Origin: Botryllus schlosseri
Taxonomy: Eukaryota
Assembly (NCBI GenBank): GCA_051294905.1
Contig: CM119373.1
Location: 5,334,001 to 5,398,000, forward strand
Direction: 5' to 3'
DNA: 64,000 nucleotides
Positions within the stretch are counted from its first letter, which is position 1, and the number at the start of each line of letters is the position of its first letter. This document shows, in pieces, positions 1,421 through 47,924 of this stretch. The notes below the pieces were generated by a model. It was given only the letters and a program-made list of their open reading frames with translations. It made no database searches and was not told where the DNA came from. The position numbers and the translations under genes were made by a program.

Positions 1421-2215
1421 ACAAGCACGACAGCTTGTTATGTGCCTGCATTTGGCGTTTACAACCTCCACAAGCTTGCAGTCCGCCATTACAAGCTGAT
1501 TACAGGGTACTTTACAACAATAATTTTTACAGTGTAGTGTGATGTTGTAAGAAAATGCTTCTCTTCATTTAATCGTTGGTAATGGACTTATTGGTTCGTT
1601 TTGGAGTAGTACTGGATGGATTTACCATGTGTTCAGCTTGCTGAATCTGTCTATAATGATTCTTGAGGAAACCGCCGCTAGAACTCAGGCATTTGGAATT
1701 GGTAGGCTATTTCCTGCAAGATGCTTATAAATAGCGCAATCTTCATATAATTGCAGGGGTACCGGGAAGGGGGTCGAGTTTGACAAGCACTGTACAAGAT
1801 GGTGGTCCGGTAACCTCGTGGTCAGATTGGTATTTAGAATTTCCAATATGTTGCAGCCTTGCTGATCCTTATTTCAACAGTCCAGAGCGGCCAACCTGCA
1901 GACGTACGGTCGCATGCAGCCAATAAACAATAGGTATGCGGACCTCGTCACATAATTAAATTAGCGAGTGCGGCGGCCGTCAACATGCAATTTGGAATAC
2001 CGAATTGGCTCCCAAATCTTTTAGAGATTTTATTTTAACTTGAAAATTTTAATCACGCTTGGGGCGATTCAGGGTGACTTTGGCTTTTAATATATTAGTG
2101 TTATTTGAGCCCCACCGTACAAATGCGAACCGCGGAGGAAAATGATTCGTCCCATAACAAAATACCAAGTCGGAACCTCAATATGCAATTGAATAGTATA
2201 TTCATATTGAAATGA

Positions 2216-2249
2216 ACCCGAATATTTTCGGCTGACACTTATCAGGGGT
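2216..2249 (-). ncRNA. Minimal type I hammerhead ribozyme motif, mutated copy (CUGAUAA instead of CUGACGA)
   Basis: Minus strand reads accc-CTGATAA-g-tgtcagc-c-GAAA-atat-TC-gggt. Confidence 0.65.
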
Positions 2250-2292
2250 AATCGTCAGCAACTAGTAGAGAATTGAAAAAATAAACATTGTA

Positions 2293-3254
2293 GGGGAGAT
2301 GTGGTACCGATGGATCAAAAATTGGAAAATGATCGCTGGCCCCAAAATGTTCAGCCGAAAACAGAAGATCTTTTGCTGGCTCAGCACTTTGATACAAGCT
2401 CTACCTATCGCGCACATATACATGAATATCCGTCCTTTCAAAAAATATTTATGGACGTTTAAAATTTGTTGCTCGAACGTGTCATCGGTCCCCACCCGGT
2501 GGGTCCAATGGCACACGACCCGGGGACCTATGACACATATACCCTAAAAAACTCAGATGTGTCAAGTTTTCTTGCTCAGTATTATAATCTAAGCTACAGC
2601 AAGCCAAAGAAGAATTTTCGGTCGCAACCGTCAAAAAATACATTAAATATTGACTCAAATGTTGTCATAAAATCACGTTTCGATTTAGGCTCGGACTTAT
2701 AAATTTGAGGGTACATACATATTGCCGGAAAATCGACAATGTGACTTCCAAAGACCTCGTTATAGCGATAAAACATCATATGCAATTATTACATAAAGAT
2801 TTTCTGTACGTAGTCATGTTTCATTTGTTTCGTGATTAGTATGCTTGATTATTTTGCTTGATTTGGCTATTGTATCATCGGTCCCCACCCTACTAATTTT
2901 GTACATGAATCGAAAAAAATTCCACTCAAGGAAAGTACTGAAAAAAATAATAGGTTCCATTATATAGCCTGATACAAGCCCTAAACTTCACAATAAAAAT
3001 GATTGCTGGTTTGTTCGTGTTGAAGGTTACAAAGAAAAATGTGTATGTCGATCTAAATTTAGTTTACACCCCCCAAAACAAAAAACATCTGTGAGAGACC
3101 CCATAGTTCTCGCACGTCGAATTTTTTTGTATGTGTGGAAAGATGTTGCCAGCATGCAATTGTAGACAAGTTCACGGAGTGTAATCATGGAATTATCATA
3201 GAGAATTTTCAAAGTATTTTCGGTCCCAGTGATCCATCGGTACCACATCTCCCC
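2293..3254. mobile_element. Non-autonomous TIR element with TA TSD (probably Tc1/mariner-pogo superfamily), copy 1
   Basis: TA|GGGGAGATGTGGTACCGATGGATCA ... TGATCCATCGGTACCACATCTCCCC|TA. Opposite-orientation copy at 30504-32255. Confidence 0.9.
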
Positions 3255-4919
3255 TATATCAACAATAGTATCGCACAATATGAGGCCATCAGCATGAAAT
3301 TTCGAATGAAACCGTGTGCGTCTCACGAATGAGGGTTTTACTGGTACGTTTGAATGATTCCAATAAATATTTCGACTGGGTCCACATACCTGATGGGAGG
3401 TCAAAAATAACAATATGCAACAAAGTCATCATTAATTTTCGGATTCGTTTCAGTTACATTCGATCAAGATCAGTTATAATAAAGCTATTTACGATGAATT
3501 GCGTCATCAACGGTGAGGTTCGGCCCGTCTGCGCCTTACCTCTCGTTTCGCGCTATTTTCGAGCAATAAATATGCAAATTGTTCGATTTTGGGAGAAAAA
3601 TGTTCAAAATCTTATCACTCATGAACATCGATAGAAAATACCAATAGTATTTGAAGGTTTCACAATTTTTGCTCACTCATCCTGACCACAGATCCGGTAC
3701 TGCCTCACTTGCCTCCCATAACCCGACGTCACTGATGTCGGCAATCACAGCTTAGAGGGGGTATGCTTATATACTGCTCTACTGGCCATGTTTGGCTCCA
3801 CCTACTCATGTAATCATAGGTTCTTGCATTCACGAGCCTCACGACGAACTCGCAACTCAAGTTTCGCATGCTTGAATAACGCAACCTGCATGACTAGCAC
3901 GACATTTAATAGAGAAGATGAGGCTCACATGAGGAATCCCATGACTGAGTTCGAATTAGTGCTACCATAGCGTCTCGAATTTTCAATTGTGACGTAACAT
4001 TTGATGGGCATGTATGGCTCTTTGGGAGAGAAAATGGGAAAAATAGGGCCGATATGGCTCTCAGGATGAAAAAGGTTCCAGACCCCTGATACCTATTCGG
4101 CTGCATACAGGGTAAGGCAAACTGAACCCGCATCTCCACAGAATAGGATGTCACGATACATAGTTGTGCGATAAGATACATATTAAAACCCGGTGTTTTC
4201 CGTGCTAATACTCTTCAGGAGCAATCGTCAGCAAACAAAGAATTTAAAAAACTTCCCTCTAACTCAGACCTGGGCATAGTGCGGCCCGCGAAGCCATTCT
4301 GTGCGTCCTGCGAAAGGTTGCGGTGAATTCATAACATTAAAACTGCTTTTTGAAATTTTGCTGCGTGGACTAAAACCACATAGGCTGTATATCAACTAAA
4401 CAGGAACTTCGTTTACTTCGAAGCCTGTTCATTACTATGCCACGAATACGTTGCCTACGTACCTCGCATGCGTAATCCAGATTTAAAGTAAAGGAATGTG
4501 ACAAAGTATGAGTAACAGTTAAAGTCACAAGAAATCAATCTTTCCATATTGCTTAGGTCAGCCAATCGCTAGACGTCGTCGAGTACGGTCGTCTCTTGAT
4601 TAGCTCTTGTCTGCTCTATTAAACCACCGAGTCGTGCAGACAGAGTCGCTTTGTCATATCATTACCTAACCGTAGCAGTTAAGAACCAATAGATACAGTA
4701 GTCTGAGTAGTCTAGTCAGTAGTTCTCCAACTCCTCTTGTAGGAAATGGAGAACATGGACGCAGATAAATCTAGTCTTATGAAGCGCAAGAAGTGTATAC
4801 AGCTGTGATAAGTGTAGCGCAAGAAGCTGAGAGTGACTCCGATGAAAATGGAAATGGTGCTAAGGTTATAGCTAGAGACTACGCAACTACGCCTAACAAT
4901 CCGGACCCTTGTCCTAAAG

Positions 4920-8420: not shown

Positions 8421-8944
8421 AGCAAAAATTATTGCTCAGAAAGAGGGATATCATATGTCCCTCACACAACCTAGGGAAAATCCCGAGTCCATGTCCGAGT
8501 ACCACGAGTCAGTAATCGTAGACGATCCTGACTCCAACAGACTTAACGCACACACGATCTCAAAGCCATACTCCCAGCGGCTTAGTTATAAGAATATATC
8601 AACCCGTGGTCGGAGTTGAAGGCCTACCACCCCACAGCTCAACGACGGTGACCTGCGCCACTGGCGACAACCACCACCCACTCGAACTGCTGCCAACCCC
8701 ACGGTCGAAACCGCAACAAGCGGGCTTGCTTCTATTGACCCCGTAGTCCTCCTTGCACTCATTGCGGAAATCGTTAAGATAACTGTACATGCTTGCAAAT
8801 CTAGCGAAAGTGGTACTGTTCTACATAATATTGCAGCCAAAGCTGCCAGCAAATATTTGGGATTTTCTGTTGACCTTAGTCTCTCTAAAAAATGTCACAA
8901 AATGTTGTCGAGTCTCTGAATAATCTTGTCCTGGAAAGAAAAAC

Positions 8945-9600
8945 TCTTCCAGATTTGCGTCCATGGCTGATGCAATCACCTAATATTGATTTAGACCTTG
9001 CAAAAATCATTAAAAAGATATCACACCTCTGTCACATAAACCCATAGTTCTGGACTTCATATTCGAACGATATAACGATGCCACCGAAGTATGCACTGAC
9101 GGCTCTAAATCAGCAGAGAGAGACGGTTTTGCATTTACCATCCCGTCGCTGATGATGAACTTTTCCCAGCCGCGTTCCACCCTTTGGCTTGTTGTCAATC
9201 TTCTCCGTCAATCTTCTCCATAGAAGCACAAGCCATTCTCCACGCTCTAAAATGGATCTGCCAGAATGGCTCATACCATCAAACATATCTGATTCTCTAG
9301 GACAGTCTGAGCGTGCTATGCGCTATGACCAACTTGCAGGCACAGCAAACGCAGAATGTTATATTTGAATGTGGTCGCTTGCTGAATCAAGCGGTTCAGA
9401 GAGGCGCCATCGTTGTCCTGGCCTGGGTACCGGGGCATGCTGATATCGGTGGTAATGAGTTAGCCGATAAATTGGCTTGGCAAGCTGCCAGGACCGATAC
9501 CCCTTCTCAGATGCTTCCAGACGAAATTAGCCACGCTCTCCTTCTCAGATGCTTCCAGACGAAATCAGCCACGCTGAGGCGAAAGCAAAAGTACGCCAAT
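8945..9600 (+). pseudogene. LINE ORF2 RNase H domain fragment
   Basis: TDGS, E-x-x-AI, DS and WVPGH-x-GNE-x-AD catalytic motifs occur in order. Confidence 0.9.
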
Positions 9601-11703
9601 ACTGTAGAGCAGCGGTGGGGAAACTACGGCCCGCGGGCCGCATGCGGCCCTCCACATCGTTCTGTGTTACATACAATATATGTAGGCCTATTAAACATCC
9701 TATGCTATTATACGGCTTCTCAGTTAAACAATTCAAAATATTTAGACCTCTATACCAATATTATATATACCTAAGGTATTGATCATTCTGTCATGCTGCC
9801 AAGTGCCACTACCCGAATAAAAATGATCAAACAGCTCCTGCTGAGGATGCAACAAACTGTCTGGATTACCCTACGTGATTGATTGCCTGGATTGGATTAC
9901 TTTACTGTTTGGCACATTGCAAATATCTTGAGTTTCAAGACATGGCTTTACTACATGTATGCGAATTAATGATCTGATGGATTATCCGAAGAGATCCGAA
10001 CATAGACAAGAAATTGATGATGCCCTCGTAAAAAACTCAGCCGGGAGTTAATCACCACATAAAATTTGGTCATGCGGTAAAAGGCAGTGTGGTTTCATGC
10101 CGACAAAAATGTCAGCAGATGATCTGACCACTGACTAACTGTCCTGAACTTCTTTCCCGATGCTGATGTCTTCTTTGAAAATATTATTTCATTTGCGTAC
10201 AGCACGATGAGCGCTCTTCCGTAATAGATGCTTTGAATCTGTCTAGACAAGTGGCTATGGAGGCAGAGGAAAAGACATGGGCATAAAGTGTCGGCAGTTA
10301 TTGAACTTGATAAGGTTGACATGCATTCTTGAACTTCTTTTTGTGCCAACGCGCTTTACGATGGTAAGTTACCACCACCAACAATCCCGCGAAACGTCTT
10401 TGTTGAACTTTTACAAGCCGCAACCTGTTCCGTGGAGTTTAGCTTTCACGAGGACATGTTTCGCCAAATAGACGGCGTGGCGATGGTAACCTATTTTGGC
10501 CAACATTTTCGTAGGATATTACGAGGGCGAGCTTCTCTCCCAGCGTGAGTCTGTCAAACCACTATTGTACCGCCGATATGTAGATGATACTTTTGTCATT
10601 TTCAGGAATGAGTCGCAGTGTAATCAATTTCTCATTCGCTTAAACTCGCTTCACCCGGCCTTACAATTCACAATAGAAAAAAAAACGCAATAACTCATTA
10701 TCATTTCCGTACGTTTTAGTCGAAAAGCGCAATACCAACAAATTTGAAACGTCTGTTTTCAGGAAACCGACATTCACAGGACAATACCTTCGCTGGAATT
10801 CATTTAGTCCTCGACGCAGAAAAATTAACCTCATATGCACCCTCTTGCATAGAGCGTTGATGATATGTTCGGGTAACAAACTGAGTTTAGAACTTGACAA
10901 CATCCGAAAAATCTTACTGGATTACGGTTACCCTGAACACGTCATCAGCCGCGGCATGGAGCGGAAATTAACGCAATTCAACGCAGAAAAACCAACAGAG
11001 CCCACCGAACGAACAGTAAAAGATGTTTATATCCATCTACCTTGGATTGGCCCCATTTCCACCCACTTTGAAAAACAATTGATTTCTGCGGTCAGTAAGT
11101 GTTACGACACAGTCAAAACCAATGTGATTTTTACAACAACACAACTGCTCCCTTCAACACGCAAAGACGCTCTCCCTGCACTTCAACAAAGTAAGGCAGT
11201 GTACGAATATAAGTGCCACTTTGAGTGTGGCTACGTGGGAAGAACGTCAAAACGTCTGCAGGAACGCATAAGCCAACATGTCCCGAGATTCATCAGAACA
11301 CGTGCTTCACGCTCAGTGAAAAACTCACCCTTAACTCATCCGCTTTAGATTGATGCTGATCGATCAAAGGCCATCAATTCTGCCATCGGAAAACATCTGT
11401 TAGATAATCCGATTTGTGCGAATAATTATCGAGACGACCGATTTCGAATCGTTGGGCGAGCCCGTTCACAATTCCATTTGTGTGCCTTGGAGTCGACTTT
11501 TACCAAAATACACCAACGAAAACTCTGTCAACAAGTCGACTTTTATCAAAATACACCAACCAAAACCCTGGCAACAAAAGGAGTTCGTGTACCACCTAAA
11601 AATAGTACATTGAACACTCTCTCATTCACGAAATTTCATGCTGGTGACGTCATATTTTGTGATACGATTGTTGATATACAATGTTCTTTCCATTTCTCTA
11701 CTG

Positions 11704-12408
11704 CAGGGCCGGCCAACCCGTGGCCCGCGAGAAGGTTTTGAGTGGCCCGCGAGGTAATTTCCGAAATCTCTAATGTTATCAAAAATGGATTGCACAGATT
11801 GTGAACTTGTGAGGCCAACCAAATATTTGATTAGTCTGGCCGCAACACTTTAGATGAGATGACTAAAATATCAGTTCCGACGCATTGGCAGATTCATGAG
11901 TCCGTCACATATTGGTAGATATACGTAGCCTACATTAAAGCGCAATAGTTTACGATTGATTTACCAAAAGTAAAAATTTTCTGCACGCTTCGCGCAACAT
12001 GTTGTCACTCGATTTCTTGCTTTTAATATTGTTGCCCCTTTGTGAAAATGAAAGAACGCCTAATGCATCAGATTGAATCTAACTATATTCACGATTACGA
12101 GACAGAGTGTCGTTCAACATATGCGACTTTACGTTTGCACTCGCAGAAAGACCGTCGACTATGAAACCTAGGCACAAATTGATTGACACATGTAGGTCGA
12201 AACTTTCGATATCGATATGTCCAGACGCCAATAGTCCAGTCCTTGCAAACAGAGCCCGGCGATATGCAGCAGGCCCGCAATAAAGTCGGGTGACAATATT
12301 ATTGACTTGTGAACTTCAAAAAATTTTCGCGCTTCGTGCGGCTAGTGGCCCGCGCAACAGTTCGTCAATCGAATGTAGCCCTTTGGCTAAAAAGGTTTGC
12401 CAGCCCTG
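11704..12408. mobile_element. hAT (Charlie-like) MITE inserted in the Penelope 3' region
   Basis: CAGGGCCGGCCAACC ... GGTTTGCCAGCCCTG with TSD CTCTACTG/CTCTACTC. Its right part is homologous to 17976-18230. Confidence 0.88.
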
Positions 12409-12429
12409 CTCTACTCGTTGCTGACGATT

Positions 12430-12463
12430 ACCCCTGACGAGTGTCAGCCCAAAATATTCGGGT
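12430..12463 (+). ncRNA. Minimal type I hammerhead ribozyme motif in the Penelope terminal region (G12 mutated to C)
   Basis: accc-CTGACGA-g-tgtcagc-c-CAAA-atat-TC-gggt: helix I accc/gggt and palindromic helix III AATATT. Confidence 0.7.
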
Positions 12464-15077
12464 TCATTTCAATATGAATATACTATTCAATTGTATATTG
12501 AAGTTCTGTACCTCCAAGAAGCTCTTCAACTAGTTTCTATGCACTGGGTATCGAATGCAAAACAAAAATTAAAATTGCACTTATTTCCAAGTATATTAGT
12601 AAATTCAATGAATCAAAGAATATCATTTGTTCAGAATATTTTGAAGGCAATGCAAAAGAAGCAATGTTCGTCGTCTTTAGAGGATGTTTATGAGTTGGTT
12701 GAACCAATATACAGAGGGGGTCAGCAGCGAAGTACTATTTTAGCACATCATCACGTCATTATGAGTTTAGGCTACTCCCACTTCTACTTGACAGTTTTTA
12801 GGCAGTACCTTTTTGTCAGACTTGAGATCGTGTCAACTAGAAAGTAGCTTTGGCGCATGATTGACTCCCCTTCAAGCGTGAAGTTGTCAAACAACTGGGC
12901 ATAATAGGCCCGCGGTTCCACGGTAACTAAATTCCACTTTGAAAATTTCACCTATTTGTAGTGCCATTACTCTTTTGCGTTGATCAAGAAGATGCACCAT
13001 GCAATGTTAACAGTTGTCACCTGACATAAATTCCTAAAACTAAGCAACCCTCAACCAAATCTACTTCATGTAACGAATTTCTTGACTACTTTCAGAAATT
13101 CATTTCTACTTCCACTTAAAGTACTTTTAACCTGTCTTGGAAGTAATTAGTTCTACTTGTACTGGAGTATAAATTACGGAGTTACTTCTACTTTTACTCG
13201 GTTCCCAACAATGACTACGTTGACCACCTCTGGGTATAGGATGACCGACCTTGTCACTGCGGTTGAGCTGCTCTAAGATTTATTTGATTGCTACTTCTCT
13301 TAGTTCCCTAAATAGCGCACACATGACATCAACTATTTGTCAAAATCGCGTGTGATTTTCCAAATCCACTTCCATCGCAGTTGCGTAGTAGTGCTAATAA
13401 AATCAGCATTGTACAAGGCAACAATGAAGTGCACTGCTTTGTTTAGTCTTGATGTCAGGTTCTCCCAAAAGATTGTTCCGATGTGTTCAGCGACATTGTT
13501 TTATGTCAGCACGACAGCAGAGCAGACAGTATATCCTGATCCCGGCGGGTCTCAGCTGCTTCAATCATATCTTCCATCCAAAATCAGGCTCCACAACAGA
13601 CGTATGGTACTACTTGAACTAACAAATACTCTTACCAGAATATAAACCAATCGCTCTACTTCAAATGCCGGAATGTAAGTACATATGATCAGAGTTGAGT
13701 AACGTAATACGACTACGTTACCGAGTGATGTCTGCGTAATTCTGACGATGTCATTCGAAATGCTTCGTACAGGACTGACGTCTAGCATAGGTGAATCTCT
13801 GATGACTTCCACAACAAATTTCTGAAACGTTTACAACCAGAAATCAACAGTACCGTATGCGATATTTATCACTGAATCAGGTGCGCGAGAAAGTAGCTTG
13901 CTAACCAATTTGTGGTTGCTATGCGTATCTAGTCACGTGATCGAAGTCCTGCAAATGGCCTATTGTCCAGGGATATCTAAAAAAGTTTTAGATATCCCTG
14001 GTAATTTTCACATCCACAACAGTTCATTTCGCGTGGTAGATCAGGAAGACAAATCGTAATTGAAAACTGCGTTTCGAAATAGTCGCCGCCATGTCACGTC
14101 TGCTATATGCTTGCTCTTTGATCAGGGCCGTATTAGCACTTTGTCAGCCCCCCCGAAAAAAACGTTGGTCTTGCCCCCCCCCCATAGGGTGATAAACCGA
14201 ACTTCTGGGGGGATTCGCCCCCCAGACCCCCCATTGTATCCTCGCTCATTGGGGCTACTTGTCATCAATCTGGGGAAACGTTTAGTGGGCCTCCCCTTCT
14301 CGCCTAGACGCGCTATGCGCGAAAAATTTCAAGAATACACGATTGAATCGGGCAGTATCATCGGGGATTGCGTATGTATTGCTATCAATTTTTATCCCCT
14401 ATCTGCTGACGTATTCAGATTTACCGTTAGAGCTGAGTGAGATGTAGCCTATTTAAAATGGTAGGACCGCTCGACAATAATTAAACATCTTCGAGCGTAT
14501 ACCCGTTGGCAGGGACGAAACAGCACTTCGTCAGGTCCCAAAAAAACTTGGGTCTTGGGCTCCCATAGGGTGATAAACCGACCCCCCCCCCATCCATCCC
14601 ATCTTGTTGATTGCTTTTGCCCCGAAATCAGCCGTAATGTCCAGTGAGCCAGCGCGGAGCGCTAAAATTTTCGATAATTATTGATAAAATCGGTCAATAA
14701 GATCGGAAATTGCATATATATTGCTATAAATTTCTTGTCCTCTCTGCCCACTTTATCAAATTTACCGGTAGAGCTGAGTGAGGTGACTTGGAAACTGTAG
14801 GGCCCGTAAATAATAATCAAACATCATCGGCGGCGGACCCGTTGGTATGACTTCGTTACATAATGTTATTTCGTGATCTCCTGTCTGCTATATCAAAAAT
14901 ATAGAGTCGGGCAAACGTACTAAACTAAAAGGCGCACACGATTTCAAATTGGTTTTTCTTCACTGGCGTATAATTTTTCCTCGCGGGATGGAATTCGTCT
15001 TCTGATGTTCAGATTGCCAAGACAGGAACATTCGGCGCCAGTCATTTAGGCGCCTAGGCTATGGACAATTAAAGCTA

Positions 15078-33536: not shown

Positions 33537-34708
33537 GGTTGCCGGTGAACTAGAACCTCGGTAAACTCAGCCTTATAAACTCGGCCCTCGGTAAACTCGG
33601 CCCTCGATGAACTCGGCCCTTGAGAAATTTTGTAATAAAGTGTATTAACAAGTATTAATATGAATTATTAAACTAATAATGTTATCATCATCTGGTTTGT
33701 CAATCTTGTAAGGAGCTCAGGGCATGCGTAGATCACGCGGTCACGGCGTGATCACATCACATGATGACGGATTGCGCAAGCTCCAAGCGCGGGAAAGAAC
33801 GTGACGTTCACATATCGACCACGCGCGGTCGGCTCAGTGTTGAATTAACTTGGCGAGGGGCGGACGTGCGACGTTCGACATCGTCGTATCTGTTCATGAC
33901 ATCGCATTGGGTCTTATCGCATTGTACATTGTGTGTGACTTGTTCAGATAAAAAGTATATCCCAACGATTGTTATTGCTCACATATCAACCACGCGTGGT
34001 CTGCTCGTTATTGTCACTGTAGGTTGAGGTGGGGTTTTAGGGTTGGGTTGGGTAGGGTAGGGGGAAGGGAGACATTAGGGTTAGGGGAGTGGGACATTAG
34101 GGCTGGGGTAGGATATTAGGGTTTGGGAAGGGGGACATTAGGGTTGGGGGTAGGCGATATTGGGAGTAGGGGATATTAGGGTTGGTGGTGGGTTAGGGTA
34201 CAAGTTGGGGTTAAGGTATTCCAAGATTAGGGTTGGAGTAGGATATTAGGGTTAGGGGTGGCATTAGGGTTGGAGGTGGGGGATATTAGGGTTGGTGTCG
34301 AAGGGTTAGGGTCGAAGTTGGGGTTAGGGTATCCCAAGATTAGGGTTAGGGGAGGAGAGACATTAGGGTTGGAGTGGTATCAGGGTTGGGGGAGGGCAAT
34401 ATTAGGGTTGGGGCAGGGGGACATTAGGGTTGGGGTAGGATATTAGGGTTGGGGTTGGGTCAGGGTCAAAGTTAGGGTATCCCAACATTAGGGTGCCCTG
34501 ACATGAATATCCCCCAGTCATATTATCCAGGGTTACCATATTTTGGAAGTCTCAAAAGAGCACCAAATTTTCATTTATAGTTTCGGAATCAGTGCGACAG
34601 TAGCTTTTGATTAAGACCAAATTCAGTAAATTCTGTTTTAATACAAAAATTCACCGAGGGCCGAGTTTGTAAGGCCGAGTTCGCCGAGGGCCGAGTTCAC
34701 TGATAATC
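33537..34708. mobile_element. TIR element with tandem subterminal AACTCGGCCCTCG repeats and an internal G-rich TTAGGG-containing array
   Basis: Left (GGTAAACTCGGCCCTC)n at 33544-33620, right (GAGGGCCGAGTT)n at 34652-34700. Partial flanking duplication GATAG. Confidence 0.75.
34020..34495 (+). repeat. Degenerate telomere-like G-rich array (ATTAGGGTTGGGG-type units)
   Basis: About 20 TTAGGG occurrences interspersed with G3-G5 runs; strongly strand-asymmetric. Confidence 0.9.
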
Positions 34709-43194: not shown

Positions 43195-46100
43195 TTTTAG
43201 AGGATTCCGCGCCCAGACCTCATTTCGTTGAGAACTAAAGAGGCACTGCGCTCTAAAAATGACTTGGTCACAATCAATGCTCCTTCTAATTTTTGAATAG
43301 TCTGCGCACACTCACCAACTCACTGCGCAAGACCCTTGGACAACAGTGCGTACCGACTAGAAAAAAGGTCACCACATTAGATTTTTTGTGCGCAACTTAG
43401 AATTTCTGTGCGCAGAGACCGTCTCAGCACTGCTCACTTGAGCACGTGCGCAGCTTAGAGGGAACATTTGGTCACAATCTTCAAATTGAAGTAGGCTAGA
43501 CATCGAAATACAATTTTGAGCTGCTGCCATTTTTTTCGGAAAGCCACCGTATTGGAGCTGTAATTTAATGAATTTTGGATAAGGGCCGTTCCACTGCAGC
43601 TACCGCGGCTGCGCGTCATCGTTGCGTAACCCGCTTTGAAATTTCTGGAGCGATATCTTCGCAGTCGCACTTGCTCGACGTGATTAGGCAGAGTCACGCA
43701 GGGAACGAACTTCTCAATTCTGGGCTTAACATAGGATTCCGCAACCAAAACGTCTAAATCGATAAATCAAAGTAGATGCTGCAAATATTTTGTGTAGTCC
43801 AATGTTGTCGGTGACTTGATCATTATATATATATATGAACACTCACTTAATTTGTAAAAGTAAACGAACTTTTCACGAACCAGTAAAAGGAACTTCTTGC
43901 GGACGGGCATCGGTCCGGAAACAAAGGTAGCGGAACACGTACTTGAACATCTTAAGCCTTGTTACCGTGGGTTCGTTTCACGCGACCCCGCTTGCCAATT
44001 GGTATCAGTGACTTTGTTTAGGTATTATGTATATAAGCAAGTGGAACATTATTGTTGGTGAATTGATAGTGGAATCGCCCATACGTATCATACCAGATCA
44101 GAGGTTGGCAACCATATGATTGCCGTGGGCCCTTTTCCTTTAAAACATGGAGTGGTCCACCTCTTGAAGAGCTGGTCATTAAAAAAGGCAATCGGTTTCG
44201 CTTGATTCAATTAAAACCTGATTCCAATGAAGCTCTGTCGCCCACCACGAACATAGTCAAGATCCGCTACTGGATGACGGTCTGTTGAAAACCCATGGAC
44301 AATACTAAATCAAAAAACTAGTTTCGTGACACGTACGCAATTGTAAATAGGATGTCGTTTCGGTGCGCAGTAGTTTCCACAGCATCCCGCTTTGGTACCG
44401 CAGGGCTCACATTGCAGATACATGGCAATTTTAGTGCCGTGGACGGACCGTCAACATATCGAAATCTAACCATATTCAACCGCATCGATACTTCGCGTCA
44501 TGGACGTCATGCTACCTCTATCGCGATCTAGTTTTGTGATCATCACGTTATTTCATTGGATCTTAACTCGAGTGTCTTCATCAATATTTAGGTGATGCTC
44601 GTTTTGAAATTCCTGTGGAGCTTATTCGTTGCTGCGGTATGAGATATGGTGCTGCTGGGCAAATGATTATTATTCCAGAATACGTGAGTTAGAAATGCGA
44701 TTTTGAAGAAAAAAAATTGATTGAGAATGAACACTTTTAGGTTGTTAAAGATATCAAATTGATTTTGAGGTCGAATAACACTGGAAAATATGATTATTTT
44801 CATGTGATGCCGTGTGATGGAGCGACAACCAACGCAACAGATTGTAAGATATTTTCATAACAATTATACAGATATTCGACTTCGTAATATTTAAAGACTT
44901 TTGTAGTTGTGACAAATGTGACAAATGCGTTGTGAGAAATAGAATGATAAGTATACCGACTCGGGAATGCCATACAACAACGCCAAGTCGCAGTAAAACA
45001 GAGATAAATTCAATGTTTAAAATAACTGAATGACCACAAAACATTAATGAATTATTCTCACAGTAAAGAGACCTTCATTCCAGCGGCAGAGTATCGGCTG
45101 TTACAGCTTTATAATGATTGTTTCAAGGACCATGAATTGCATGGCAGAGAGAAGTCACGAGCAACTATGGAGAAGTGATTGCCACCATTACATTTTGCAA
45201 ATTAAGGGTGTTTCAGAAGGTGTTGTCGGATGTCGGAGATTTTCTATGATGACAATACAGTTGCATGTAACACACGAATTGTTTTTAGCAGGGCTGTGGA
45301 GAGGAGTTGGACTCGGAGTTTCGCTCATTTTACCTTGATGTACCCGGAGTCGGAGTCTCTTTTTAGCACGTCTTTGAGTCGGAGTCGGAGTTTGTGAAAA
45401 TACTGTCGACTACGTCTCCGACTTTTTTAATATGAAGACAAATGCTTTCGAAGATCTCGTAAAATTGCCGATAATAAATAAAATAGGGCTTGTATGTACC
45501 AACAATCACAGTTGTTAGTAACTAGATTGACAAAACTGGACATTTATTGCAAATTGCAATTCAAGTAGTTACAGGAAAAAATTTCAACCAAATCGCGACC
45601 AACACAAAATTACAGATGCAGTCAAAAATTGGTTCAATTTTTTGAATTGTACCATGATATTATGAAACAGGAAGTATATAGCCTGGTTTTTGTAAGTGGC
45701 AACATCGCATTTAACATTGATGAAAATATAACAAAACACTCCTTCTCGCTTCACAAACATATACGAGACATTGTACAAAGCTACGAACGTTACTGGAAAT
45801 AACACATTTTCTAAGTCATGATCATCCCACAACGTTGTCAAGACGTGCATTGAAATCGGTATGGTCGAACAAATACCAAAGTATCTTTGATGTGACGGAT
45901 AACAGGCATTATGTTCTTTTTGGTGGCATAAAAGGTACATATTTGAACTTTGACTTAGTACATTCTGTTGTGACGTCATAATGTGCGATACTCGAATACT
46001 CGACTCGAATCGTAATACTTGATTCAGAATCGAATCGCTCAGGTACTCGATTTTGCCCAGCCATAGTCACCAGCAAATATTACATTCGCCACCACCTATC

Positions 46101-47739
46101 TTTGTGGAAATGGATTTTCAGCACTCGTTCATATCAAATCAGAAGCGCCAGTTTTAAAGACACGACTACATATTTCAATGAATGCACCTGTAAAATTCGC
46201 TTTGAAATGATAAAAATCGATGCGATTTCCACATAATGCCTGATATTATTTATAAGTTAGGATATTTGGACGCCGTCTATGACTATCCTACTGTTAATTA
46301 TCGCACAAGTCATATCACGGTTGCACGACAATTGAGCAAAATTTGAGCGAAAACTAGACGGGGTCCGTGGGGGTCTCTGACGACCGAAAGGGGTCCGTGA
46401 AGACAAAAAAGCTGAGAACCACTGTCCTAGATTTCGTTTCGGAACATCGTTTATTGGTAGTGAGAAAGTGTGTTGCCTACTTGTCATCAGTACAGTGTTC
46501 AGTGATAAAATTTCTAGAACTCTGTATTAGTTGCTGAGTCATGCACAAGAGCTACACTGCTATTATTTATATCCACATTCTAATTGCAGAGAGATGGGAT
46601 ATATAACATGTTTAAATGATTCATACAAATTAGAGTATCCGTGGCTTGTCCAAGTTATACAAACTTGTGAAATATGAATAAAAGGTTGATTTTATGTTGC
46701 AATAATATGACCTACCATATATTATTATTGTGTAACTTCATCAAATTCACTCTGTCCCGTCCCAGTTTACTGGATAGCTATTTGAACGACACACAATGTA
46801 TGGCCGTATGACTACTTGGTTACTGCTGCATTCACTTCCAGTTATTATATAATTGAATTTCTTCTCGTTTCTGTTAGTCGCGGGTTGTCATCATAAGCGT
46901 ATAACCCAAGGGAGGAAATAACCTTTAATTCGTCCTCCCTCTTTTCGACTTGGGCACATTGACGATATACTTTCACTGCGTCTTGTTATAGGAGTCAACC
47001 GAAAAGCTTGATGTGCTAATGATTTGGCAGTTACCAGAAATGTTTTGCCGGAATTAAAATGAAGACAAACACCACTAAATTTCCACTAACTCCGTAATGT
47101 TCTAAAGAGCTCTGTGGCCCACCTTAAAATCCTCCGATGGTCCACCGACACTATGCTATATTAATATTATTACTAGGGCTAGTTTTACTAGTTTTTGCAG
47201 CTTTTGCCACCTTTTCTACAATTTCCGGCATCTTCCTATATACTCAGCAATCAGCATATATTTTGTATATATTGCTATAAAGTTTTTATCCTCTTATCAG
47301 AATTGTCAGATTTTCCGGTAGAGCTGTCGTCTTAGAAAATTTAGGGCACGTAACAAATATTAAACATAGTCGTGCGGGCCTGTTGCAATAGTTACTTCGT
47401 TGCATGTCAAGATTTCGTGACCTACTGAATGTTATATTGTGAATAAATATTGAAATCGCCATTCTTACTAAACTAAAAGTCGTAGATGATTGCAAATTGG
47501 TGTTTTTGTGTGGTGCTGGCAAATAACTTTTCTCTTTGGGATGGCCTTTTTCTATTGGTTACAGATTGCTAGTACAGTGAGATTCGACGTTATTCATTTA
47601 GGCGCCGATGGACGATTAAACATATAAATATCAAGGTTTTCGGTCAGCAAAGCGCAGTCTTTTTCGACAAAGGTTTTTCTCACTGTCGAATTTTCGGCAT
47701 ATTTTTCGGAGTACTATATTACCCTATACTTCCTTATTT

Positions 47740-47924
47740 GAAGAGGTTCTTGGAGGTACAGAACTTCAATATACAATTGAATAGTATGTTGATATTGAAA
47801 TAAACCCGAATATTTCCGGCTGACACTCGTCAGGGGTTGCTGACGATTACCCCTGACGAGTGTCAGCCGAAAGTATTATGGTTTAAATCAATATGAATAT
47901 ACTATTCAATTGTATATTGAACTT
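47740..47924. mobile_element. Inverted (back-to-back) duplication of the Penelope terminal region
   Basis: Arms 47762-47837 and 47849-47924 are inverted repeats with an 11-nt spacer TGCTGACGATT. Both match 12430-12525. Confidence 0.88.
47849..47882 (+). ncRNA. Minimal type I hammerhead motif with intact core, weakened helices I and III
   Basis: accc-CTGACGA-g-tgtcagc-c-GAAA-gtat-TA-tggt. The mirror copy at 47804-47837 (minus) has GGAA in place of GAAA. Confidence 0.65.

Follow-up and report, generated by a model that had tools for sequence, protein, structure and literature searches.

What does a second CUGACGA do 13 nt upstream of a hammerhead motif at the end of a retroelement? The question is raised by positions 12421-12427 of the window, i.e., the whole 64-kb stretch of Botryllus schlosseri DNA that was analysed here, where the extra box lies just as a preliminary description had claimed. 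The hammerheads of Penelope-like elements (PLEs) and the pseudoknotted type I hammerheads are already known, each separately. What the present study adds is a covariation test across families, which explains the extra motif as the predicted partner of loop II, together with a seemingly clade-wide architecture for which a testable mechanism can be put forward.

Damaged hammerhead copies in the window

Four hammerhead copies had been placed at 2216-2249(-), 12430-12463(+), 47804-47837(-) and 47849-47882(+), and they lie exactly there. Aligned in hammerhead numbering, each copy bears a core lesion of its own and none of the four is intact, yet every position of the 34-nt consensus motif is unbroken in at least three of them; the 4-bp helix I, the single G-C pair of helix II and the AAUAUU palindrome also stand as first drawn. 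A 20-nt core pattern, searched with up to 3 mismatches, gave 4 matches in the window and 0 in each of 100 shuffles of it.

Copy A (12430-12463, plus strand) consists of the helix I 5' strand (12430-12433), the core (12434-12440), G10.1 (12441), loop II (12442-12448), C11.1 (12449), the G12 position (12450, a C here, hence the lesion G12C), the palindrome (12453-12458), C17 (12459), a predicted cut between 12459 and 12460, and the helix I 3' strand (12460-12463). Copy B (2173..2270, minus strand, motif 2249-2216) carries G8A and a C>U at N7, which amount to one CG>TA change. Copy C (47735..47837, minus strand, motif 47837-47804) has the lesion A13G and is 5'-truncated at helix I, so that it is left without the upstream arm described below, and copy D (47836..47924, plus strand, motif 47849-47882) has A>G at 15.2, C17A and G>U at 1.1. 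Since copies C and D stand head-to-head with a 2-nt overlap at 47836-47837, they are probably a single insertion, making three events instead of four; adjacent inverted copies are described, in the text of PMC8557442, as common in Penelope-like elements.

The window copies are dead relics, each of which would have been broken after its insertion. Our initial generic hammerhead scan found nothing in the window because the copies are all non-intact, and an Rfam scan of the 64 kb returned 2 matches up to E=1, neither of them to a hammerhead family; every copy is damaged and the helices are atypically short. This points to a blind spot: Rfam missed all of the damaged window copies, and descriptors demanding a helix II of several pairs would miss the clade.

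A Penelope/Poseidon-type terminal region

The assignment of these copies to a Penelope terminal region was borne out by an ORF remnant upstream, by a joint that skips a MITE in 4/4 sequencing runs, and by a tail that encodes the N-terminus of the ORF. The remnant (10336..11610, plus strand), 5'-truncated and frameshifted, covers the C-terminal half of the reverse transcriptase (RT), the thumb and, at the C-terminus, a GIY-YIG endonuclease, and in a tblastn of its relatives it corresponds to about residues 435-841 of an 841-aa relative, at ~52-65% identity. The relatives have RVT_1 and GIY-YIG matches, and the RVT_1 match in the window itself is weak (E 0.0035). The layout is that of a Penelope/Poseidon EN+ PLE, with a single ORF that joins RT to a C-terminal GIY-YIG; on reading the translation, we saw no Cys-rich linker between RT and endonuclease.

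The 5' part of the pLTR (the 3' UTR) occupies 11611..11703 on the plus strand and continues at 12409 in uninterrupted copies. The joint 11695>12409, which skips 713 nt, was seen in 114 reads of X23, 295 reads of X21, 17 contigs of X15 and 12 contigs of X16. What it skips is a later MITE at 11704..12408, 705 bp long with inverted ends CAGGG...CCCTG and flanked by a target duplication of 8 bp in which one base is mismatched, the sum of 705 and 8 being the 713 nt of the skip; from its end motif and the length of the duplication we take it to be hAT-like. Copy B is likewise split, by a TA-flanked MITE at 2293-3254, beyond which its pLTR continues (3255-3317) into the same UTR as copy A, 11614-11678 matching 3317-3255(-). 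Two unrelated DNA-transposon MITEs have thus inserted independently into one short pLTR segment, ~20 nt apart.

Downstream of the motif, the ORF start codon and the PLE tail (12474..12532, plus strand) encode the first ~19 residues of the element protein, and the tail peptide aligns with the N-termini of six full-length relatives (P0003, P0006, P0028, P0029, P0047 and P0052). The AUG at 12474 lies 14 nt past the predicted cut. The best-supported 3' ends in reads and contigs fall at 12519-12529; in the Anolis element, according to the text of PMC11167929, the Penelope tail marks internal reverse-transcription starts. The hallmarks of Penelope found here are a tail that runs into the ORF start and adjacent inverted, 5'-truncated copies (the head-to-head C and D). 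The summed contig depth of X15, which is not a copy number, is ~30 times higher over the motif than over the ORF end, and this suggests that most copies are short stubs. We rejected a non-LTR retrozyme, since the copies are dispersed, 5'-truncated pLTR stubs tied to a PLE ORF and not ORF-less short tandem repeats. A 140-aa frame at 12425-12847 was also set aside: it has no Pfam match and differs from the frame of the element.

Some smaller features of this region were recorded. The first ORF codons (12470-12503) form an AT-rich imperfect palindrome, detected as a self-match, and there are two classes of 3' ends, with B and D stopping just past the palindrome (~12505) and A and C reaching ~12532. 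A pyrimidine tract ending in UAG at 12409-12417 and 2262-2285(-) resembles a 3' splice site and ends two bases 5' of the arm, in the loose-end majority as well as in copy B; the intron of D. virilis Penelope, as the text of PMC4209133 has it, ends at helix I. Among the 15 joints listed for reads and contigs on the window, none is a spliced joint.

Predicted pairing between the upstream box and loop II

By comparison with related families, the extra CUGACGA is the predicted pairing partner of loop II. The arm GCUGACG (12420..12426, plus strand), which the loose-end majority of X15 and X23 also has, is complementary to loop II, UGUCAGC (12442-12448), with six Watson-Crick pairs and one G.U. Out of 272 metagenome loci coding for relatives of the ORF we examined 80, and the ORF end could be placed in 59 of them. 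The same architecture was found within 700 nt of the ORF end in 44 of these 59; of the 15 remaining loci, 8 have at most 208 nt left and 7 have more than 500 nt after the ORF yet no pattern match, one of the latter (L185) being matched later by the covariance model. Because 38 of the 44 loci are near-identical copies of one family, the family is the useful counting unit, and we worked with seven: the window family and L121, L122, L126, L135, L147 and L148, at 48-72% protein identity.

In all seven families the order is core, G, seven bases, C and GAAA, and the arm ends 6-10 nt before C3. The arm and loop form seven pairs in six families and six pairs in L147. Their letters change together, reading GCUGACG/UGUCAGC in the window family, UCUGACG/UGUCAGA in L121 and L122, UCCGACG/UGUCGGA in L126, UGACGCG/UGCGUCA in L135, UCUAGCG/AGCUAGA in L147 and UCCAGUG/CGCUGGA in L148. 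Helix III is a palindrome too tight for a loop and takes four forms across the seven families (AAUAUU, AAGCUU, AACGUU and AAAGCUUU). The preliminary description of a type I motif with a palindromic helix III in a Penelope pLTR is supported, and helices I and III covary among the related families.

For the covariation test, 17 rows were picked by hand: three window copies (copy C, without an arm, was omitted), ten of the L122 type, and L121, L126, L135 and L148. Arm-loop cells were paired at 98.3%, and 5 of the 7 pairs change on both sides. The values observed for the whole structure were reached by 0 of 500 shuffles, a figure that is not a probability, the rows being related, and control structures slid along the alignment were 25-40% paired. 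For helix I, 3 of the 4 pairs change on both sides and 91.2% of the cells are paired, with L126 misaligned by one column. All 70 covariance-model matches in the loci (36 distinct and fitted to the structure) gave 94.6% paired, with four positions changed on both sides. A single 2-nt slip shared by the two strands could account for the change in L135, and without L135 there are still four double-changed positions. The base of the covariation is these seven related families only.

Two sequences found afterwards, outside the training set of the model, keep six of the seven pairs. One is L147 and the other a fifth, older copy in the window at 4182-4235(-), matched by the covariance model at E 1.4e-4; it has the same arm, six of the seven arm-loop pairs (two of them G.U) and a CUGAAGA core, and its GAAA and helix III are damaged. 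In random flanks, all seven pairs arise at 0.3-1.1% per loop. As a null we took 120 core matches that occur by chance in prokaryote genomes: the loop was fully paired in 4 of them, a helix I of at least four pairs was present in 4, and 0 combined the two. In a protein-based scan, relatives of the ORF were found in 0 of 20 candidates among viral contigs and 0 of 9 among prokaryote genomes; a tighter motif pattern had 0 matches, the looser prokaryote matches (120) stood at chance level, and neither of the 2 viral motif matches was matched by the covariance model.

Might the motif be a chance pattern in an ordinary dispersed repeat? The lack of an Rfam hammerhead match and of an intact copy in the window would agree with this, but the same position and architecture recur in seven divergent families in which helix I, helix III and the putative pseudoknot all covary, and we rejected the reading, giving it practically no credence.

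It is also very improbable that the CUGACGA upstream is itself a catalytic box, be it a second or an alternative one, e.g., one left by a local duplication. A perfect CUGACGA does stand there in the window family, L121 and L122, and in the latter two the downstream box is non-canonical. The arms of L126, L135, L147 and L148 (UCCGACG, UGACGCG, UCUAGCG and UCCAGUG), however, are not core boxes at all, and the upstream box cannot be joined by a helix I to the bases that follow UH. We rejected this explanation because those four families with non-core arms keep a canonical downstream box.

The arm as a partner of loop II thus remains the preferred reading, and its geometry bears on helix II. G10.1-C11.1 is G-C in 15 of the 17 rows and G.U in 2, and G-C in 7/7 family representatives. 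The arm helix reaches C11.1 in 0/7 families and G10.1 in 2/7, by wobble only, as would be expected if helix II is kept. A pseudoknot between the stem I and stem II regions calls for at least four pairs with compensatory changes, and here there are 6-7 pairs. What the covariation shows is a pairing that has been maintained; that this pairing and helix I would form side by side, we infer.

We therefore consider it likely, on comparative grounds, that this is the pLTR end of a Penelope/Poseidon-type element with a type I hammerhead, whose 1-bp helix II is probably held by a 7-bp pseudoknot and whose predicted dimer cut falls shortly before the start codon.

The core boxes CUGANGA/GAAA/UH are whole in L126, L135, L147, L148 and L156. 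In the commonest related family (L122:1969-1975 and some 37 loci like it, L121-L200) the core is UUGAAGA, with a U3.G8 wobble and U17; C3 is found in L156 and L129, and a compensated U3-A8 pair in L121. The U3.G8 in place of the expected C3-G8 in that commonest family counts against the preferred reading. In the flank of L187 (minus strand) we met a minimal hammerhead of the conventional kind, which belongs to another family and has a helix II of 6 bp, so the scan was able to see conventional motifs.

Folding and RNA data

Folding was done without pseudoknots, and the pair probabilities obtained in this way for the window family were ~0.65 for a hairpin that sequesters the core, ~0.32 for arm and loop and ~0.24 for helix I. 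The hairpin between the core CUGAC and loop II becomes the minimum fold once the arm is removed. The all-A/U palindrome pairs very weakly (-0.2 kcal/mol), and with so weak an AAUAUU helix III, slow or assisted cleavage is plausible in this model.

Such folding raises the thought that the helix between arm and loop II is an off-state hairpin, which would enclose the core, compete with the active fold and restrain cleavage. As a plain hairpin it has -7.8 kcal/mol in the window family, it appears in the minimum-energy fold of L126, L135 and L148, and the genomic copies span the cut site, i.e., uncut RNA is a template. We nevertheless hold this to be quite unlikely: the helix stops at the boundaries of the loop and leaves G10.1-C11.1 and the core unpaired, with no direct block; the arm stays within 6-10 nt of the core in 7/7 families; and the same contact activates known hammerheads, according to the text of PMC3088659.

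Two RNA runs chosen by species label (X21 and X23) showed no pile-up of read ends at 12459/12460, which is a weak test as the libraries were fragmented; the sole pile-up of ends was at 12250. Reads that run on into unlike sequence made up 98% in X23 and 70% in X21, and strand bias was absent in X23 and about 3:1 in X21. The RNA depth is not evidence of ribozyme expression, because the reads stem from stubs scattered within other transcripts. In X15 the loose-end majority, which could be read up to loop II, confirmed the arm, helix I, the core and the start of loop II, and that of X23 has a CpG-type change at G8.

The same data bear on another explanation, that the fold persists chiefly because it binds protein or marks the start of translation and that cleavage is slow, protein-assisted or dispensable. 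In its favour, the hammerhead of the Anolis Poseidon element cut only with protein, its core mutants still inserted and it left no RNA-seq ends, as the text of PMC11167929 reports; there are no RNA ends at 12459/12460 here either; U3.G8 is fixed in the commonest related family; and the hammerheads of fungal viruses with a one-pair helix II cut at ~0.01 per min in the account of PMC13725137. Against it, the families hardly vary at U4, G5, A6, A9, A13-A15.1 and U16.1, and a compensatory U3-A8 core pair is present in L121, which together point to selection on catalysis. We regard this explanation as unlikely, and it is partly compatible with the preferred one, i.e., the pseudoknotted hammerhead.

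Comparison with known hammerheads

That Penelope-like elements carry type I hammerheads with a palindromic helix III is established (PMC4209133), and the text of that paper also describes such motifs as cutting as dimers, weakly. With the min-HHR of metazoan PLEs (Cervera and de la Pena 2014, PMC4209133), as presented there, the window clade shares the type I topology, a helix I of 4-6 bp, G10.1-C11.1, a palindromic helix III that implies dimers, the pLTR location, an abundance of single copies that are truncated, and, in some relatives, a core with the U3-A8 variant. The label "minimal" given to the window motif is nonetheless not apt in the published sense, in which helix II has at least 3 pairs (56 of 56 rows of Fig. 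S3 in PMC4209133, usually with an extra base after A9); here, in contrast, it has one pair and no extra base in 7/7 families, and its loop is predicted to pair with the upstream arm. The word "pseudoknot" has 0 occurrences in the main text of PMC4209133.

Pseudoknots between stems I and II in hammerheads with a stem II of 1-2 bp support fast cleavage, by the accounts of PMC3088659 and PMC10187678. The 1-bp example in the text of Perreault et al. 2011 (PMC3088659) is of type II and pairs loop I with the 3' tail, and the type I examples given in PMC10187678, from a mouse gut metagenome and Yarrowia, have a stem II of 2 bp; as far as the text of these two papers goes, none is described as a Penelope pLTR motif with a palindromic dimer helix III. 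The short-stem-III variants of Lünse, Weinberg and Breaker (2017) are reported to be PLE-linked, with a reduced stem III and dimer cleavage.

The Poseidon element PAc of Anolis (Frangieh et al. 2024, PMC11167929) resembles the element described here, in that text, by its RT with C-terminal GIY-YIG, tails that extend into the beginning of the ORF, a hammerhead at the junction of pLTR and ORF, and the lack of RNA-seq ends at the cut site; it cuts 26 nt downstream of the start codon, whereas the predicted cut of the window clade lies 3-52 nt upstream. The hammerhead of PAc cleaves only with protein and is dispensable for insertion in vitro (PMC11167929). A role in translation is thus not general to PLEs, because PAc needs protein, can do without the ribozyme in vitro and cuts downstream of the AUG. 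Type I hammerheads in the 5' UTRs of chryso- and fusariviruses share, in the text of PMC13725137, a helix II of 1-2 bp and a cut just 5' of the ORF (7 nt in one case), and in one tested UTR cleavage was required for cap-independent translation; unlike the window clade, they have a long helix III, act as monomers and reportedly show no clear loop-loop contacts.

Judged on its sequence, the architecture resembles a pseudoknotted type I hammerhead in its predicted working and a PLE pLTR hammerhead in its placement. We found no report of a one-pair helix II with a pseudoknot in Penelope hammerheads in the literature searched, which left figures and the likeliest source, the 2017 paper of Lünse and colleagues, outside. 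Absence from print is accordingly not secure. In its abstract that paper reportedly mentions earlier hammerheads in which loop II forms a pseudoknot with bases preceding stem I, and the study reportedly spans ~150,000 sequences, among which a pseudoknotted one-pair variant may be present.

The published Penelope hammerheads cut slowly, have no recognised tertiary contacts and are in one case dispensable in vitro. With an explicit, mutable tertiary contact, as predicted here, and a predicted cut before the AUG, the window clade would offer a clean system in which to study catalysis and a role in translation.

Proposed mechanism

Within one pLTR copy, the arm would pair with loop II and thereby pre-fold the "enzyme" half, i.e., the arm, the 5' strand of helix I, the core, helix II and GAAA, in competition with the self-inhibitory hairpin in which the core CUGAC pairs with loop II. 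Together, the arm helix and helix I would form a pseudoknot, which we favour because the arm helix spares C11.1 and a similar contact activates known short-stem-II hammerheads. As the palindromic helix III leaves no loop, pairing would take place between two pLTR copies, carried by a partial-tandem transcript or by two RNAs; these would join through the palindrome into helix III and swap their helix I 3' strands. Cleavage after C17 would then yield an ORF-first RNA whose short leader begins with a 5'-OH. Since the genomic copies span the cut site, cleavage would have to be incomplete or reversed, with a reverse-transcription template that is uncut or re-ligated at the site.

In 7/7 families the predicted cut falls before the AUG of the ORF, in a range of 3-52 nt: the leader would be 14 nt in the window family and 4, 3, 14, 41, 52 and 45 nt in the others, L126 having an additional out-of-frame AUG at +3. 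This leads to a more far-reaching and rather doubtful idea: in the Poseidon-type clade, the pseudoknot may have replaced the long helix II and made dimer cleavage efficient, and the cut before the AUG may act as a switch, the cut RNA serving as an uncapped, short-leader mRNA for the RT-endonuclease and the uncut or re-ligated RNA as a template. If true, it would give the Penelope hammerhead a testable function.

Other features of the window

Upstream of the Penelope remnant, 8889-9774(+) holds broken LINE-like frames with an RNase H match (E 7e-6). A weak match (E 3e-5) at 45047-45328(-) to a Penelope-type protein, in its C-terminal endonuclease region, is probably a second, older PLE fragment. 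A 5'-truncated U6 snRNA fragment (Rfam RF00026, 56 bits) at 21147-21211(-) lies inside a repeat at 20521-22376, whose inverted partner is at 15083-16948, and is possibly a U6 retrocopy or chimera. In addition, the window contains a degenerate ~52-bp minisatellite at 46-1384 and a G-rich array at 34051-34494 with many TTAGGG-like units.
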